Shown here: piece after piece, positions 13,219 to 20,182 of the stretch
Layout: each line of letters begins with the position of its first letter
Numbering within the stretch: the first letter of the stretch is position 1
Assembly (NCBI RefSeq): GCF_003018235.1
Contig: NZ_CP027437.1
Reading direction: 5' to 3' (one strand)
From: Escherichia coli
GTDB taxonomy: Bacteria > Pseudomonadota > Gammaproteobacteria > Enterobacterales > Enterobacteriaceae
DNA length: 64,000 bases
Translations under genes and position numbers: made by a program
Notes under the pieces: model-generated
The model's input: the letters and a program-made list of their open reading frames with translations, nothing else
The model's database searches: none
Told to the model about the DNA's origin: nothing

Positions 13219-13713
13219 ATGGATCGAGAGTTAAAAAATCTGACGCTGAATATCAGTCAACTGGCGGCATTGTCAGGTGTACATCGCCAGACTGCTGCGG
13301 CAAGGCTGCAAAATCTACCCGTTGCAGGGGGGCATGAAAGCAACCTCAAGCTTTATCGGGTGGTTGATATTGTGTCGGCATTTCTGGCATTACCACCGCC
13401 GGTTGCAGAAGGCGAAATGGACGCGCATGAGCGCAAAGCCTGGTATCAGTCTGAACGTGAGCGTCTTAAGTTCGAACAGGAAACGGCACAACTCATTCCG
13501 GCCAGTGATGTCAGACGGGAGTTTGCCATCTGGGCAAAAGCGGTCGTGCAGGTGCTGGAGACATTACCGGATATTCTTGAACGTGACTGCGGTCTGCAGC
13601 CTGCCGCTGTGAGCCGTGTTCAGTCCATTATTGATGATCTGCGCGATCAGATAGCCCTGCGGGTGACTGAAGCAGGTGCGGATGATGAGGAGGAATTACA
13701 GCAGGAGGAGTAA
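13219..13713 (+). CDS. Terminase small subunit (Nu1/Noh family)
   Basis: 164 aa with N-terminal HTH (LNISQLAALSGVHRQTAA); stop overlaps the large-subunit start. Confidence 0.8.
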   Translation: MDRELKNLTLNISQLAALSGVHRQTAAARLQNLPVAGGHESNLKLYRVVDIVSAFLALPPPVAEGEMDAHERKAWYQSERERLKFEQETAQLIPASDVRREFAIWAKAVVQVLETLPDILERDCGLQPAAVSRVQSIIDDLRDQIALRVTEAGADDEEELQQEE

Positions 13714-15815
13714 TGCTGAATCAGGAAACCGCAAAGGCAGCACGAACCGATTCAGGTTATATCCTTCGCGCACCGAGACGAATGCGGGTTGCTGATGCCG
13801 TTGCTCAGTATATGCGGGTGCCCATGGGGGCAGGGAACTCAGTCCCGTGGGATCCGCTGGTGGCACCGTATGTTATTGAGCCTATGAACTGCCTGGCCTC
13901 GCGTGAATACGACGCAGTGATATTTGTTGGCCCGGCACGAACCGGCAAGACTATCGGCCTGATTGACGGCTGGGTGATTTACAACGTGATTTGCGATCCT
14001 GCTGATATGCTGATCATTCAGATGACGGAGGAAAAAGCCCGCGAACACTCCAAAAAACGACTCGCCAGAACGTTTCGCGTCAGCCCGGAAGTGGTCAGTC
14101 GCCTGAGTCCGAACAAAAATGACAACAACGTTTATGACAGAACATTCCTTGCTGGCAACTACCTGAAAATCGGCTGGCCGTCAGTCAATATCATGTCTTC
14201 ATCAGATTATAAATGCGTGGCGCTGACGGATTATGACCGTTTTCCGGAAGATATTGATGGTGAGGGGGATGCCTTCTCTCTTGCCTCAAAACGTACCACC
14301 ACATTTATGTCCAGTGGTATGACGCTGGTGGAGAGTTCCCCCGGCAGGGATGTGAAGGATGTGAAATGGCGACGGACTTCACCGCATGAGGCTCCACCAA
14401 CCACGGGGATCCTGTCGCTCTATAACCGTGGCGATCGCCGTCGCTGGTACTGGCCCTGTCCACACTGTGGTGAGTATTTTCAGCCCTGCGGCGATGTGGT
14501 TGCTGGTTTCCGTGATATTGCCGATCCTGTGCTGGCAAGTGAGGCGGCTTATATTCAGTGTCCTTCCTGTTCAGGACGGATTTTGCCTGAACAAAAACGC
14601 GAGCTGAACGGACGTGGGGTCTGGTTACGGGATGGTGAATCCATCAATGCAGATGGCAGTCGTTATGGTGATCCCCGGCGTTCACGTATTGCGTCATTCT
14701 GGATGGAGGGGCCGGCAGCTGCTTATCAGACACTCTCGCAACTCGTTTACAAACTGCTTACTGCAGAACAGGAATACGAGACAACCGGAAGTGAAGAGAC
14801 ACTCAAGACGGTTATCAATACCGACTGGGGATTACCTTATCTTCCCCGCGCCAGCATGGAGCAACGAAAAAGTGAATTGCTTGAGCAGCGGGCAGAGCCA
14901 GTTCCTTCCCGCAGTGTGCCGGATGGCGTTAATTTCCTTGTGGCGACAGTGGATGTGCAGGCGGGACGTCATCGCCGTTTTGTGGTTCAGGTAACGGGCT
15001 ATGGCAGCCGTGGCGAACGCTGGATTATTGATCGTTACAACATCACGCAGTCATTGCGCGGTGACAGCGACGGGGAGAGCCAGCGAATTGATCCGGCCAG
15101 CTATCCGGAAGACTGGGATGTCCTGCTGACGGATGTTTTTCATAAAAGCTGGCCGCTGGCCTCCGATCCTTCTCAACAAATGCGACTGATGGCAATGGCG
15201 GTGGACTCCGGCGGTGAAGACGGGGTCACTGATAATGCCTATAAATTCTGGCGTCGTTGCCGTCGTGATGGCCTTGGTAAACGTATTTACCTGTTTAAGG
15301 GCGACAGCATCCAGCGCGCAAAACTGATCACCCGTACATTCCCTGATAACACCGGACGAACGGGCCGACGGGCGCAGGCCGCAGGTGATGTACCGCTCTG
15401 GCTTCTTCAGACGGATGCCCTGAAAGACCGGGTGAATAACGCGTTATGGCGTGACTCGCCAGGTCCCGGCTATGTGCATTTCCCTGACTGGCTGGGGAGC
15501 TGGTTTTACGACGAACTGACGTATGAAGAGCGGAGCAGTGACGGGAAATGGAGTAAGCCGGGTCGCGGTGCCAACGAAGCTTTTGACCTGATGGTGTATG
15601 CCGAGGCTCTGGTCATTCTGCATGGATACGAAAAGATCCGCTGGCCGGATGCACCGGAGTGGGCGAGCCGGGAAACCTGGCTGGAGTGTGTCCCGGACAG
15701 TACCGAACCGTCACCCACACCGGAACCGGTATCCACGCCTGTTAAAAAACAAAAACGGAAGAAAACAGTAACTGACGATGTTAACCCCTGGCTGACTTCC
15801 GGAGGATGGTTATGA
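13713..15815 (+). CDS. Terminase large subunit (lambda gpA-like)
   Basis: 700 aa with Walker A VGPARTGKT and C-terminal nuclease region. Confidence 0.92.
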   Translation: MLNQETAKAARTDSGYILRAPRRMRVADAVAQYMRVPMGAGNSVPWDPLVAPYVIEPMNCLASREYDAVIFVGPARTGKTIGLIDGWVIYNVICDPADMLIIQMTEEKAREHSKKRLARTFRVSPEVVSRLSPNKNDNNVYDRTFLAGNYLKIGWPSVNIMSSSDYKCVALTDYDRFPEDIDGEGDAFSLASKRTTTFMSSGMTLVESSPGRDVKDVKWRRTSPHEAPPTTGILSLYNRGDRRRWYWPCPHCGEYFQPCGDVVAGFRDIADPVLASEAAYIQCPSCSGRILPEQKRELNGRGVWLRDGESINADGSRYGDPRRSRIASFWMEGPAAAYQTLSQLVYKLLTAEQEYETTGSEETLKTVINTDWGLPYLPRASMEQRKSELLEQRAEPVPSRSVPDGVNFLVATVDVQAGRHRRFVVQVTGYGSRGERWIIDRYNITQSLRGDSDGESQRIDPASYPEDWDVLLTDVFHKSWPLASDPSQQMRLMAMAVDSGGEDGVTDNAYKFWRRCRRDGLGKRIYLFKGDSIQRAKLITRTFPDNTGRTGRRAQAAGDVPLWLLQTDALKDRVNNALWRDSPGPGYVHFPDWLGSWFYDELTYEERSSDGKWSKPGRGANEAFDLMVYAEALVILHGYEKIRWPDAPEWASRETWLECVPDSTEPSPTPEPVSTPVKKQKRKKTVTDDVNPWLTSGGWL

Positions 15816-16024
15816 ATCAGAATGATATTGAAGCCATGATTCAGCGTTATACGGAAGCTGAAATGGCAGTGCTGGACGGAAAATCCGTCACTTTTAATGG
15901 TCAGCAGATGACCATGGAAAACTTATCTGAGATCCGGCAGGGGCGGCAGGAGTGGGAGCGCCGCCTTGCGGCTCTGATTACACGACGACGGGGGCATCCC
16001 GGGTACCGGCTGGCGAGGTTCTGA
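15812..16024 (+). CDS. Head-tail joining protein gpW-like
   Basis: 70 aa; C-terminus ITRRRGHPGYRLARF resembles lambda W; ATGA overlap with terminase stop. Confidence 0.7.
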   Translation: MNQNDIEAMIQRYTEAEMAVLDGKSVTFNGQQMTMENLSEIRQGRQEWERRLAALITRRRGHPGYRLARF

Positions 16025-17532
16025 TGGCAATTCTTGATGATGTGATTGGCGTTTTTTCACCAGGATGGAAAGCGGCAAGGCTGCGTTCCCGAGCGGTGAT
16101 CCAAGCTTATGAGGCCGTAAAAACGACGCGGACACACAAAGCCCGACGGGAGAACCGAACTGCCGACCAGTTAAGCCAGTACGGGGCCGTGTCGTTACGT
16201 GAGCAGGCCCGTTACCTTGATAACAACCACGATCTGGTCATTGGTGTATCTGACAAGCTGGAAGAACGGGTGGTGGGGAAAAACGGGATTATTGTCGAGC
16301 CACATCCGGTATTACGCAATGGTGCCATTGCCCGTGACCTGGCAGCGGAGATACGTACCCGATGGAGTGAATGGTCTGTCAGTCCGGAAGTCACCGGGCA
16401 GTTTACCCGTCCGATGCTGGAACGTCTGATGCTGCGTACCTGGCTGCGCGATGGTGAGGTGTTTGCCCAGATGGTTTCCGGGCGCATAAACAGCCTGACG
16501 CCTTCTGCCGGTGTTCATTTCTGGCTGGAGGCGCTCGAGCCGGACTTTATTCCCATGACCAGTGATGAGAGCAACAGGCTGAATCAGGGCGTGTTTGTTG
16601 ATGACTGGGGGCGTCCCGAAAAATATCTGGTGTATAAAAGTCGTCCTGTATCCGGACGGCAGATGGAAACCAAAGAAGTGGATGCAGAGCGAATGCTGCA
16701 TCTTAAATTTGTTCGCCGTCTGCACCAGATGCGCGGGACGTCTTTATTGTCCGGTGTGCTGATCCGCCTCAGCGCCCTGAAAGAGTATGAAGATTCTGAG
16801 CTGACTGCAGCAAGGATCGCCGCTGCTCTGGGGATGTACATCCGGAAAGGCGACGGACAGAGCTATGAAACGGATGGTAATGACAGCAAGGAGAATGAAC
16901 GCGAGCTTACCATTCAGCCAGGCATTATTTACGACGATCTGAAACCCGGCGAAGAAATCGGAATGGTGAAGTCGGATCGTCCCAATCCTAACCTTGAAAC
17001 TTTTCGTAATGGTCAGTTGCGTGCCGTGGCGGCGGGCAGTCGTCTGAGTTTTTCCAGTACGGCACGCAACTATAACGGCACTTACAGCGCCCAGCGTCAG
17101 GAACTGGTTGAGTCTACTGATGGCTACCTGATCCTGCAGGACTGGTTTATTGGTGCCGTCACCCGCCCGATGTATCGTGCCTGGCTGAAACAGGCTGTGG
17201 CATCCGGTGTTATCAGGCTACCCCGCGATCTTGACCGTTCTTCACTGTATACCGCGGTGTATTCCGGACCAGTGATGCCGTGGATTGACCCTGTTAAGGA
17301 GGCTGAGGCCTGGAAAATCCAGATTCGTGGTGGAGCGGCGACAGAATCAGACTGGGTACGTGCTGGTGGTCGTAATCCGGATGATGTCAAACGTCGGCGC
17401 AAGGCCGAAATTGATGAAAACCGCAAGCTGGATCTGGTATTTGATACCGATCCGGCCAGTGATAAAGGAGGCAGCAGTGCCGCAACGAAACGACAGGAGC
17501 CGCAGCACACCGACGACCAGTCCGAAGAATAA
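16024..17532 (+). CDS. Portal protein (lambda gpB family)
   Basis: 503 aa, start overlaps gpW stop by 1 nt; position and size fit a portal. Confidence 0.88.
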   Translation: MAILDDVIGVFSPGWKAARLRSRAVIQAYEAVKTTRTHKARRENRTADQLSQYGAVSLREQARYLDNNHDLVIGVSDKLEERVVGKNGIIVEPHPVLRNGAIARDLAAEIRTRWSEWSVSPEVTGQFTRPMLERLMLRTWLRDGEVFAQMVSGRINSLTPSAGVHFWLEALEPDFIPMTSDESNRLNQGVFVDDWGRPEKYLVYKSRPVSGRQMETKEVDAERMLHLKFVRRLHQMRGTSLLSGVLIRLSALKEYEDSELTAARIAAALGMYIRKGDGQSYETDGNDSKENERELTIQPGIIYDDLKPGEEIGMVKSDRPNPNLETFRNGQLRAVAAGSRLSFSSTARNYNGTYSAQRQELVESTDGYLILQDWFIGAVTRPMYRAWLKQAVASGVIRLPRDLDRSSLYTAVYSGPVMPWIDPVKEAEAWKIQIRGGAATESDWVRAGGRNPDDVKRRRKAEIDENRKLDLVFDTDPASDKGGSSAATKRQEPQHTDDQSEE

Positions 17533-17545
17533 TTCCTGGTTCAGG

Positions 17546-19504
17546 ATGCAGGCTGGTCACCAGAGTGACGCGGATATTTATATTTATGACGAGATTGGTT
17601 TCTGGGGTGTTACAGCGAAGCAGTTTATCAGTGATCTGAATGCACTGGGCGATATCACCCACATTAATCTCCATATTAATTCACCGGGTGGCGATGTCTT
17701 TGAAGGCATCGCCATTTTTAATGCGCTGAAAACACATGGTGCGTCCATTACCGTTTATGTCGACGGTGTGGCGGCGTCAATGGCGTCGGTCATTGCGATG
17801 GTGGGAAACCCGGTCATTATGCCGGAAAACACTTTCATGATGATTCATAAACCATTTGGCTTTACGGGCGGTGATGCGGAGGACATGCGCACCTATGCCG
17901 ACCTGCTCGATAAAGTTGAGGCGGTTCTGTTACCCGCTTATGCACAGAAAACCGGGAAAACCACCGATGAAATTGCTGCCATGCTGGCGGATGAGACCTG
18001 GATGTCCGGTGCCGAATGTCTGGCACATGGATTTGCTGATCAGGTAACGCCAGCCGTTAAGGCAATGGCATGTATTCAGTCAAAACGTACAGAGGAATTT
18101 AAAAAGATGCCGGAATCCATTCGAAACATGATTACTCCGCCACGCAACAGTGCTCCACGCGTACAGGATGATGAACCTGCAGCCTCCCGGACGCCAGTGC
18201 AGGCAGCAGCACCCGTGGTGGATGAAAACAGTATCCGTGCGCAGGTACTGGCAGAGCAAAAAGCGCGTGTAAACGGTATTAATGATCTGTTTGCCATGTT
18301 TGGCGGGCGTTATCAGACTCTGCAGGCTCAGTGTCTTGCCGATCCTGAATGTTCGCTGGAGCAGGCCCGCGAAAAGCTGTTGAACGAGATGGGGCGCGAG
18401 TCCACGCCATCCAATAAAAATACCCCGGCTCATATTTATGCCGGTAACGGTAATTTTGTGGGGGACGGGATCCGCCAGGCGCTGATGGCGCGTGCCGGAT
18501 TTGAAAAAACCGAACGTGATAATGTCTACAACGGGATGACCCTGCGTGAATATGCCCGTATGTCACTGACTGAACGGGGTATTGGGGTTTCCAGTTATAA
18601 CCCGATGCAGATGGTCGGTGCGGCGTTCACACACAGTACGTCTGACTTCGGTAATATTCTGCTGGATGTTGCGAACAAAGCCATTCTGCAGGGCTGGGAA
18701 GATGCTCCTGAAACCTATGAACAGTGGACGCGGAAAGGTCAGTTGTCTGATTTTAAAATTGCCCATCGTGTGGGTATGGGGGGCTTCAGTGCTCTGCGTC
18801 AGGTGCGTGAAGGGGCGGAATATAAATACGTCACCACCGGAGATAAACAGGCCACTATTGCACTGGCGACCTATGGCGAGCTGTTCAGTATCACCCGTCA
18901 GGCCATTATCAATGATGATCTGAATATGCTGACCGATGTCCCGATGAAGCTGGGCCGTGCGGCGAAATCCACCATTGCCGATCTGGTTTATGCCATTCTG
19001 ACGTCTAACCCGAAAATCTCCACAGATAATGTAAGTCTGTTCGATAAAGCGAAACATGCAAACGTACTGGAGAGCGCTGCAATGGACGTGGCATCGCTGG
19101 ATAAAGCCCGCCAGTTGATGCGCGTTCAGAAAGAGGGGGAGCGTCATCTGAATATTCGTCCTGCGTTCGTACTGGTACCGACGGCGATGGAGTCTGTTGC
19201 TAACCAGGTCATTCGCTCCTCAAGTGTCAAGGGGGCTGACATTAACGCCGGTATTATTAACCCGGTGAAAGATTTTGCGACCGTTATTGCAGAGCCTCGT
19301 CTTGATGATAACAGCCAGACCACCTTCTACCTGGCTGCGTCCAAAGGCTCCGATACGATTGAAGTGGCTTATCTCAACGGTGTGGATACGCCATATATTG
19401 ATCAGATGGAGGGCTTCAGTGTGGATGGCGTGACAACGAAAGTGCGTATTGACGCCGGTGTCGCGCCAGTTGATCACCGCGGTCTGGTGAAATGTACGGC
19501 GTAA
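17546..19504 (+). CDS. Fused ClpP/S49-like prohead protease, scaffold region and HK97-fold major capsid protein
   Basis: N-terminal ClpP-like region, Ala/Pro-rich linker, C-terminal capsid-like domain; 652 aa from the first ATG after the portal stop. Confidence 0.8.
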   Translation: MQAGHQSDADIYIYDEIGFWGVTAKQFISDLNALGDITHINLHINSPGGDVFEGIAIFNALKTHGASITVYVDGVAASMASVIAMVGNPVIMPENTFMMIHKPFGFTGGDAEDMRTYADLLDKVEAVLLPAYAQKTGKTTDEIAAMLADETWMSGAECLAHGFADQVTPAVKAMACIQSKRTEEFKKMPESIRNMITPPRNSAPRVQDDEPAASRTPVQAAAPVVDENSIRAQVLAEQKARVNGINDLFAMFGGRYQTLQAQCLADPECSLEQAREKLLNEMGRESTPSNKNTPAHIYAGNGNFVGDGIRQALMARAGFEKTERDNVYNGMTLREYARMSLTERGIGVSSYNPMQMVGAAFTHSTSDFGNILLDVANKAILQGWEDAPETYEQWTRKGQLSDFKIAHRVGMGGFSALRQVREGAEYKYVTTGDKQATIALATYGELFSITRQAIINDDLNMLTDVPMKLGRAAKSTIADLVYAILTSNPKISTDNVSLFDKAKHANVLESAAMDVASLDKARQLMRVQKEGERHLNIRPAFVLVPTAMESVANQVIRSSSVKGADINAGIINPVKDFATVIAEPRLDDNSQTTFYLAASKGSDTIEVAYLNGVDTPYIDQMEGFSVDGVTTKVRIDAGVAPVDHRGLVKCTA

Positions 19505-19590
19505 ACGTCGCAGACAACAACTCTGATGGCCCGTAAGGGCTTTTTTTGTACCTGAAATCAGCCTCTGAACGGGGCTGTGCGGAGACAGTT

Positions 19591-19914
19591 ATGGCAAAGA
19601 ATTTTGTAGAAGAAGGAAAAACGGTGGCGATTGTTGCCAGTGCAGCCATCAGCAGCGGAGATCTGGTGCAGGTGGGTGATGTTTTTGCGGTGGCGCTGAC
19701 CGATATTCCACAGGGTGAAACAGGCGACGGCATGACCGAAGGTGTGTTTATCCTGCCTAAACTGAAAACGGATGACATGAAAACGGGTAAGAAGGTTTAT
19801 CTGAAGTCCGGAAAAGTTCAGCTGACTAACAGCGGCTCTGATCCGCTGGTCGGGGTTGTCTGGGCAGATGCCGGAACCAGTGCAGAAGAAGTGCCGGTAA
19901 AACTCAATGTCTGA
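19591..19914 (+). CDS. DUF2190-like small head protein (putative decoration/cement)
   Basis: 107 aa immediately after the capsid gene; SD ggag. Confidence 0.5.
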   Translation: MAKNFVEEGKTVAIVASAAISSGDLVQVGDVFAVALTDIPQGETGDGMTEGVFILPKLKTDDMKTGKKVYLKSGKVQLTNSGSDPLVGVVWADAGTSAEEVPVKLNV

Positions 19915-20182
19915 TCCCTTTTCCCGGCTGGCAGCGCGTATGGATGCGATCACGGTCAGAAAGATGGGAAAGACAGCCTCGATTAATGATGTCGATATGG
20001 CTGTGATCCCGGGCGAAACACTGGCAGAGCTGAATGCTCTGTCCGGACCTGCGGTCTCTCTGGTGGTGTTTTCTTCGGGATACCGCCCACGGCGCGGGGA
20101 TCGCGTTGTTTATGACGGACAACAATGGACGGTCACACGGCATGAACGTTTTAACGGTAAGCCAATGATCTTTATTGAGTAA
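19907..20182 (+). CDS. Head-tail attachment/adaptor protein
   Basis: 91-aa ORF overlapping the preceding stop, between head and tail genes. Confidence 0.5.
   Translation: MSDPFSRLAARMDAITVRKMGKTASINDVDMAVIPGETLAELNALSGPAVSLVVFSSGYRPRRGDRVVYDGQQWTVTRHERFNGKPMIFIE

Follow-up and report, generated by a model that had tools for sequence, protein, structure and literature searches.

Does the long open reading frame that follows the portal gene in this stretch of Escherichia coli DNA (contig NZ_CP027437.1 of assembly GCF_003018235.1; 64,000 nucleotides, here called the window) encode a prohead protease, a scaffold and a major capsid protein in one chain, and if so, where does that chain begin and how might the capsid protein be released from it? 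A preliminary description had proposed such a fusion, starting at ATG 17546 or TTG 17285 and undergoing autoproteolysis during head maturation. The frame occupies the plus strand from 17285 to 19504, and the six-frame ORF list gives 739 aa counted from the TTG at 17285 and 652 aa if it is read from the ATG at 17546. It contains no internal stop, so the uninterrupted reading frame ending at 19504 that had been described is borne out; within 17477-19501, in particular, no stop codon is present. The stretch 17477-19504 is a genuine gene, undivided and carried by a lambdoid prophage of E. coli, and its parts and neighbours are collected in Table 1.

Table 1. Coordinates of the fusion gene, its parts and its neighbours in the window; residue numbers refer to the 675-aa form.
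Feature	Position	Strand	Basis or remark
gpA-type large terminase gene	13713-15815		Pfam
Portal gene (lambda family)	16024..17532	+	Pfam Phage_portal_2, E 9e-82; RefSeq annotation of collinear prophage
Shine-Dalgarno sequence AAGGAGG	17465..17471	+	5-nt spacer before GTG 17477
Protease-scaffold-major capsid protein fusion gene	17477..19504	+	675 aa, 73.5 kDa; most likely reading
Variable N-terminal extension, aa 1-22	17477..17542	+	Ends in conserved S-W-[FY]; overlaps portal 3' end in another frame
ClpP-like (MEROPS S14-type) prohead protease domain, aa 23-191	17543..18049	+	Pfam CLP_protease
Putative catalytic Ser101 codon, motif AASMA	17777..17779	+	Invariant in 60/60; aligns with ClpP GxAASM motif
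Putative catalytic His124 codon, motif MIHKP	17846..17848	+	Invariant in 60/60; aligns with ClpP MIHQP motif
Poorly conserved linker, aa 192-249	18050..18223	+	Columns weakly conserved, with indels
Three-helix module (conserved), aa 250-308; delta-domain-like, a scaffolding candidate	18224..18400	+	AlphaFold2 and alignment
Disordered junction, aa 309-325 (GRESTPSNKNTPAHIYA)	18401..18451	+	pLDDT <50 at aa 316-324
HK97-fold major capsid protein domain, aa 326-675, plus stop codon	18452..19504	+	Pfam Phage_capsid_4 and Foldseek
Intrinsic-terminator-like hairpin, GGCCC-GTAA-GGGC plus T7	19528..19548	+	Just 3' of the fusion gene
Head decoration (cement) protein gene, 107 aa	19591..19914	+	Phage_cement_2, E 2e-20; phrog_122 'head decoration', E 2e-46

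The start codon is most likely the GTG at 17477, 69 nt upstream of 17546. The arrangement of AAGGAGG, five nucleotides and GTG recurs in mEp213 and ASU11, and at the equivalent upstream position MD8 carries GGAGG, five nucleotides and ATG. RefSeq places the start of the matching gene of NZ_CP076706, whose DNA is 100% identical over 17546-19504, so as to give the 675-aa form, and the biggest sequence clusters are likewise 675 aa long, one of them with 8230 members. We also aligned 60 full-length homologues (34-77% identity). In this alignment the column of the Met at ATG 17546 holds Ile in 30 of the 60 sequences and Met in 15, and just ahead of it stand a Trp (three residues upstream; 39/60) and an aromatic residue (two upstream; 42/60), whose conservation implies that the residues there are translated. 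Taken together, the Shine-Dalgarno sequence, the conservation of these upstream residues and the RefSeq start therefore make 17477-19504 the most likely extent of the gene. The N-terminal extension that this start adds has an AlphaFold pLDDT below 50 over aa 1-17, and a predicted strand follows at aa 23-26.

It is unlikely that the protein starts instead at one of the two codons previously proposed. The ATG at 17546 lies 14 nt past the portal stop and would spare the gene any overlap, whereas a 5' end at GTG 17477 overlaps the portal gene by 56 nt; moreover, some database entries differ in their start, as with the 707 aa of the Tritos annotation. However, a Shine-Dalgarno sequence was looked for before both ATG 17546 and TTG 17285 and found at neither, and in three homologues (Gifsy-2, Fels-1 and MD8) the codon equivalent to 17546 is ATC or ATT, which is no start codon, their own starts lying 32-33 codons upstream.

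A second alternative concerns the frame itself, which could be an artefact, two or three separate genes for protease, scaffold and capsid that a frameshift in sequencing or assembly had merged, or else a decayed prophage pseudogene. What speaks for it is a homologue of 51% identity, P0165 at locus L009, for which the gene calls give two genes whose frames differ; one encodes a ClpP-like protein of 201 aa and the other a protein of 443 aa comprising the helical module and the capsid domain. The neighbours of that locus are, however, out of the usual head-gene order, with a DUF1441 gene downstream, and the split may be damage in an apparently rearranged neighbourhood. Against an artefact stands the spread of the intact gene. 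Of 5426 complete E. coli genomes, 2124 contain its DNA; the same unbroken frame is present in the 2002 where coverage reaches 80% or more, it is annotated there as the fusion protein, and in 1471 the identity is at least 99%. The frame is found as well in phages of Escherichia, Salmonella, Klebsiella, Providencia and Pseudomonas that form plaques, about 40 isolated phages carrying the gene at 64-100% amino acid identity, and it is intact in more than 100 distinct clusters at 50% identity. In addition, two curated models, NF045540 and phrog_133, cover the full length. We found no sign of a frameshift, and because conservation is so broad we exclude such an artefact, regarding it as extremely improbable. 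Two homologues were considered as natural split versions of the gene and rejected, P0165 for its two frames and for neighbouring gene calls out of the usual head-gene order, and P0228 for its place on a 1.5-kb contig without context.

Having settled on a single gene that most likely starts at 17477, we turned to its domains, and both a protease and a capsid domain are present by HMM searches and by structure. The AlphaFold2 model of the 675-aa form has a mean pLDDT of 86.8, with exactly three disordered stretches (aa 1-17, 224-245 and 316-324) between well-folded modules. The N-terminal region had been described as a ClpP/S49-like protease, and of this the ClpP (S14) assignment stands and the S49 assignment does not. 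Pfam CLP_protease matches aa 23-168 of the 652-aa reading (E 4.4e-36), and the NCBIfam model for 'head maturation protease, ClpP-related' (NF045542) gives 216 bits, its cutoff being 120. Comparison of the full-length model with the PDB using Foldseek retrieved ClpP crystal structures with TM scores of 0.75-0.83, normalised to the target, and a phmmer search of PDB sequences matched ClpP proteins only, with no capsid relative among the matches. By contrast, no Pfam match to Peptidase_S49 was obtained at E<=0.01, and TIGR00706 (SppA_dom) reached 22.3 bits against a cutoff of 155. The protease domain is predicted with a pLDDT above 90. Ser101 is the putative active-site serine, as in ClpP; Glu173, which stands at the position of the ClpP Asp and is E in 51/60 homologues, is the putative third catalytic residue. 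The ClpP-type domain looks catalytically competent.

A capsid-like domain at the C-terminus was also confirmed by HMM and structure, though through Phage_capsid_4 and Mu gpT-like families rather than Pfam Phage_capsid. Phage_capsid_4 matches aa 352-649 of the 652-aa reading (E 7.4e-55) and Mu-like_gpT gives a weaker match (E 3.7e-8); neither Phage_capsid (PF05065) nor Peptidase_S78 was among the Pfam matches at E<=0.01. Because the full-length Foldseek search was dominated by ClpP chains, we made a separate model of aa 246-675, whose top matches were all HK97-fold shells with probability 1.00, namely encapsulins and the capsids of FCWL1, phiXacJX1, phiCD508, LME-1, PhiTE, P4 and a cf-PICI. If the chain were cut at the junction that precedes the domain, the capsid part would have a mass of about 38 kDa.

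The central region between the two domains comprises aa 192-325; a size of about 130-200 aa is expected of a Gifsy-2-type tripartite gene. In the AlphaFold2 model, two short helices lie between the protease domain and a Pro/Ala-rich disordered linker. The Ala/Pro-rich middle segment of the earlier account is real: the linker core, aa 219-249, is 39% A+P, and pLDDT falls below 50 at aa 224-245, a predicted disorder. The three-helix module that comes next (helices 250-273, 280-288 and 294-308) is predicted with a pLDDT of about 90-96 and carries the conserved motifs E..R...I..F and CL.D......AR.KLL..LG. No scaffold family in Pfam matched this module, and a Pfam search with the middle segment, aa 190-328, returned nothing significant, its best match having an E of 0.024, below the cutoff. 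By position and by analogy, the module is a candidate for the scaffold part. The junction downstream of it differs in length among homologues and contains a nearly invariant Pro311; it is the candidate region for a maturation cleavage that would free the capsid protein.

The complete protein belongs to a family that has been described and is routinely annotated. NF045540, an NCBIfam model named 'ClpP-like prohead protease/major capsid protein fusion protein', scores 985.2 bits against a curated cutoff of 475 and aligns aa 9-651 with model positions 2-651 of 652, while phrog_133 of PHROG matches end to end (positions 12-667 of 668) with 1188 bits; nothing of note sets the gene apart from either family, of which it is a typical member. 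WP_001360054.1, the RefSeq protein of the matching gene in NZ_CP076706, is named as that fusion protein. An exhaustive HMMER scan of 1.84 billion cluster representatives retrieved 6757 proteins at E <= 1e-30; the best 150 of these matches are mostly full-length at 36-60% identity, and the clusters, drawn at 50% identity, that hold full-length matches exceed 100. The isolated phages Tritos and PhiR55_1 have a protein 100% identical to this one, which argues that the gene is functional, and identity is 99.4-99.8% in mEp460 (99.7%), cdtI, Ayreon and others. Over the full length, identities are 74-78% in Stx-converting phages, mEp213 and LLS, 72% in Fels-1, 69.8% in Gifsy-2, 64% in a Providencia phage and 57% in Pseudomonas F10/MD8-like phages. 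Searching the literature for the RefSeq product name as it stands yielded nothing useful.

The gene is an ordinary member of the Gifsy-2-type tripartite family, and a one-chain architecture of protease, scaffold and capsid is already known. [quoted passage not shown] A citing paper attributes the Gifsy-2 tripartite capsid gene to this 2010 work (PMC12315714). The Gifsy-2 protein (STM1034.3n) is a full-length homologue, its 69.8% identity extending over aa 1-651, in which ClpP-like protease, central region and capsid domain follow one another as they do here; its gene likewise follows a lambda-family portal gene with an overlapping start and precedes a decoration gene, whose product, STM1034, is 61% identical to the decoration protein of the window. 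The same flanking genes, portal upstream and decoration downstream, are found in Fels-1. On the other hand, the Pro/Ala linker and the junction of Gifsy-2 are of other length and sequence, both Gifsy-2 and Fels-1 differ by additional residues ahead of the capsid domain, and the ATG at which Gifsy-2 starts precedes the conserved core by 33 codons, whereas the GTG used here precedes it by 23. In Pseudomonas phage MD8, which differs in host genus, gp5 is a further case in which one gene encodes protease, scaffold and major capsid protein (PMC8508860), and it is 56.8% identical over the full length.

The fusion had further been set against lambda, with C/Nu3, D and E, and HK97, with separate gp4 and gp5. 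This contrast holds, and the published Gifsy-2 work makes just this point. The arrangement of C/Nu3, E and D in lambda is otherwise well established. The gene order of the window resembles that of lambda in its succession of terminase, W-like, lambda-family portal, protease/scaffold, capsid and decoration functions, in the joining of a protease of the ClpP/crotonase superfamily to a scaffold (here a candidate one), and in a decoration protein that stabilises the shell. In lambda, however, the protease is S49-type and fused to the scaffold only, Nu3 being nested in C, and the capsid protein E is the product of a separate gene preceded by the decoration gene D, whereas here an S14-type protease and the capsid domain share one chain and the decoration protein is of the Phage_cement_2 family, which differs from that of gpD. 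This comparison draws partly on PMC8508860. In HK97 the scaffold function resides in an N-terminal part of the capsid protein, itself of HK97 fold, that the prohead protease takes off; the likeness would lie in this delta-domain arrangement, which the three-helix module and the capsid part resemble here. The HK97 protease gp4, in contrast, is encoded by a separate gene and belongs to an unrelated family (S78/U35), and the HK97 shell is held by covalent cross-links without a decoration protein, whereas a decoration gene is present here.

How might such a chain mature? The domain architecture, the conservation of the catalytic residues, the homology to Gifsy-2 over the full length and the gene context observed here, read alongside the published pathways of Gifsy-2, HK97 and lambda, fit a polyprotein whose capsid protein would be released by its own protease, and from these we infer the inward topology, the cleavage position, the scaffold function and whether cutting occurs in cis or in trans. 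Full-length subunits would build a T=7 procapsid on the portal, with the capsid domains forming the shell and the protease and helical parts, the N-terminal two-fifths of the chain, placed inside it, where they would serve as scaffold. Crowding within the shell would press the protease domains against the flexible linkers; these domains would then cleave it within or close to aa 309-325 and break down what lies inside. The major capsid protein of about 38 kDa would remain and expand on DNA packaging, and the decoration protein would bind and stabilise the shell. The self-release anticipated by the preliminary description is probable from homology. We hold the assignment to the Gifsy-2-type class, together with the general self-processing mechanism, with high confidence; for the exact position of cleavage our confidence is much lower.

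A 1:1 stoichiometry of protease to capsid protein would be unusual, and it leaves room for additional products, made for instance by internal initiation. Nesting like that of lambda C/Nu3 could arise here if translation restarted at Met211 (ATG 18107, after GAGGAA) besides producing the full-length chain; this would yield a scaffold-capsid protein of 465 aa that lacks the protease, and only a minority of subunits would carry the protease, which would ease the stoichiometry. An ATG at this column, with an AGGA/AGGAG motif 9-10 nt upstream, is indeed present in 7/7 compared phage loci, including that of Pseudomonas MD8 (57% identity). We nevertheless consider such a restart very unlikely: across the 60-sequence alignment the Met211 column holds Met in 9, Val in 11, Ile in 10 and Ala in 9 sequences, the Shine-Dalgarno-like bases simply encode a conserved E-E-F motif of the protein, and their spacing is at the long end for a Shine-Dalgarno sequence. 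Were it true, relative initiation rates would determine how much protease each procapsid receives, and nesting in the style of lambda C/Nu3 would be extended to the capsid protein. In the reading that we prefer, a single full-length product, the gene is an example from nature of protease, scaffold and shell being supplied 1:1 in one chain. As a discovery it carries little weight, since the architecture has its own NCBIfam and PHROG families and is named correctly by RefSeq in thousands of E. coli genomes; the practical yield is the corrected start at GTG 17477 (675 aa), the domain map and the candidate cleavage region.

The surroundings of the gene are those of a lambdoid prophage. Positions 7148-39503 of the window are 99% identical to, and collinear with, a prophage of E. 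coli O170:H18 strain CFIAFB20120266, which adjoins ydfJ, ydfK and ynfT, chromosomal markers of the Qin locus, and carries the Qin-type genes dicB, ydfD, hokD, cspB/F/I, essD and rrrQ. The annotated head module of this collinear prophage has no further gene for a protease, a scaffold or a capsid protein. A search for Rfam families in 17300-20000 gave nothing real, and no tRNAs were found within the window.

A spacer of 86 nt separates the fusion gene from the decoration gene. The terminator-like hairpin at its upstream side is kept in 7/7 compared loci and is annotated as a rho-independent terminator in mEp213. Right before the decoration Shine-Dalgarno sequence lies a second, GC-rich hairpin, the sequence of which varies while its pairing is kept in six enterobacterial loci; MD8 retains the first hairpin but lacks this second, enterobacterial one.

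The portal gene contains, at its 3' end, the likely start of the gene that follows it, which encodes the protease, scaffold-like segment and major capsid protein as one fusion, and the two genes overlap out of frame by 56 nt (17477-17532). An equivalent overlap was seen in Gifsy-2, Fels-1, MD8, mEp213 and ASU11; the Providencia phage, as annotated, is without it. The gene overlap suggests translational coupling of the portal protein and the capsid precursor.

Downstream, the spacer that leads from the capsid fusion gene to the gene for the head decoration protein (19505-19590) carries two hairpins in a conserved layout, and a search of Rfam gave no match for this two-hairpin spacer. Hairpin 1 was found in all seven phages compared, Pseudomonas phage MD8 among them, while in hairpin 2 pairing is kept as the sequence varies across the six enterobacterial loci. 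The position is an odd one for a terminator, as it separates two genes, capsid fusion and decoration, that are required at roughly equal levels. Under Q antitermination, transcription may run past hairpin 1, and the hairpin may influence how stable the mRNA is or how the decoration gene is translated.

Sequence features at the borders of the capsid fusion gene
Feature	Position	Sequence or remark
Fusion gene, probable start	17477	GTG
SD of fusion gene	17465-17471	AAGGAGG
Hairpin 1	19528-19548	terminator-like; GGCCC-GTAA-GGGC + T7
Conserved motif	between hairpins 1 and 2, within 19505-19590	ACCTGAAAtC
Hairpin 2	immediately 5' of the decoration gene's SD, within 19505-19590	GC-rich

A mechanical call of the decoration protein ORF starts at TTG 19546 and gives 122 aa (19546-19914), of which the matches to family models begin only at residues 16-21. 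In RefSeq and in Gifsy-2 the gene starts at ATG 19591 (107 aa), a codon preceded by GGAG.

In the Stx1 phage VT1-Sakai (AP000400.1), the homologue of the fusion gene is 78% identical, with the match split in two pieces. IS629 and transposase features are annotated beneath this match, and the capsid gene of VT1-Sakai appears to be broken by an insertion sequence.

Deposited phage genomes differ widely in their labels for identical or near-identical fusion proteins, which range from 'Major Capsid Protein', 'head-tail preconnector protein Nu3' and 'head-tail preconnector protease C' to 'putative protease/scaffold protein', 'head maturation protease' and even 'terminase protein'. In many such records a keyword search would therefore overlook the capsid gene. 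The start of the protein also occurs in three versions in public records (652, 675 and 707 aa).

The first 39500 nt of the window hold a seemingly intact lambdoid prophage adjoining ydfJ/ydfK/ynfT, whose Qin-type genes include dicB, hokD, rem, cspB/F/I, essD and rrrQ. This appears to be a complete prophage related to the K-12 Qin element, which is defective. Positions 7148-39503 are collinear with, and 99% identical to, a prophage of E. coli O170:H18 CFIAFB20120266, and the head module is common to phages Tritos, mEp460 and cdtI.
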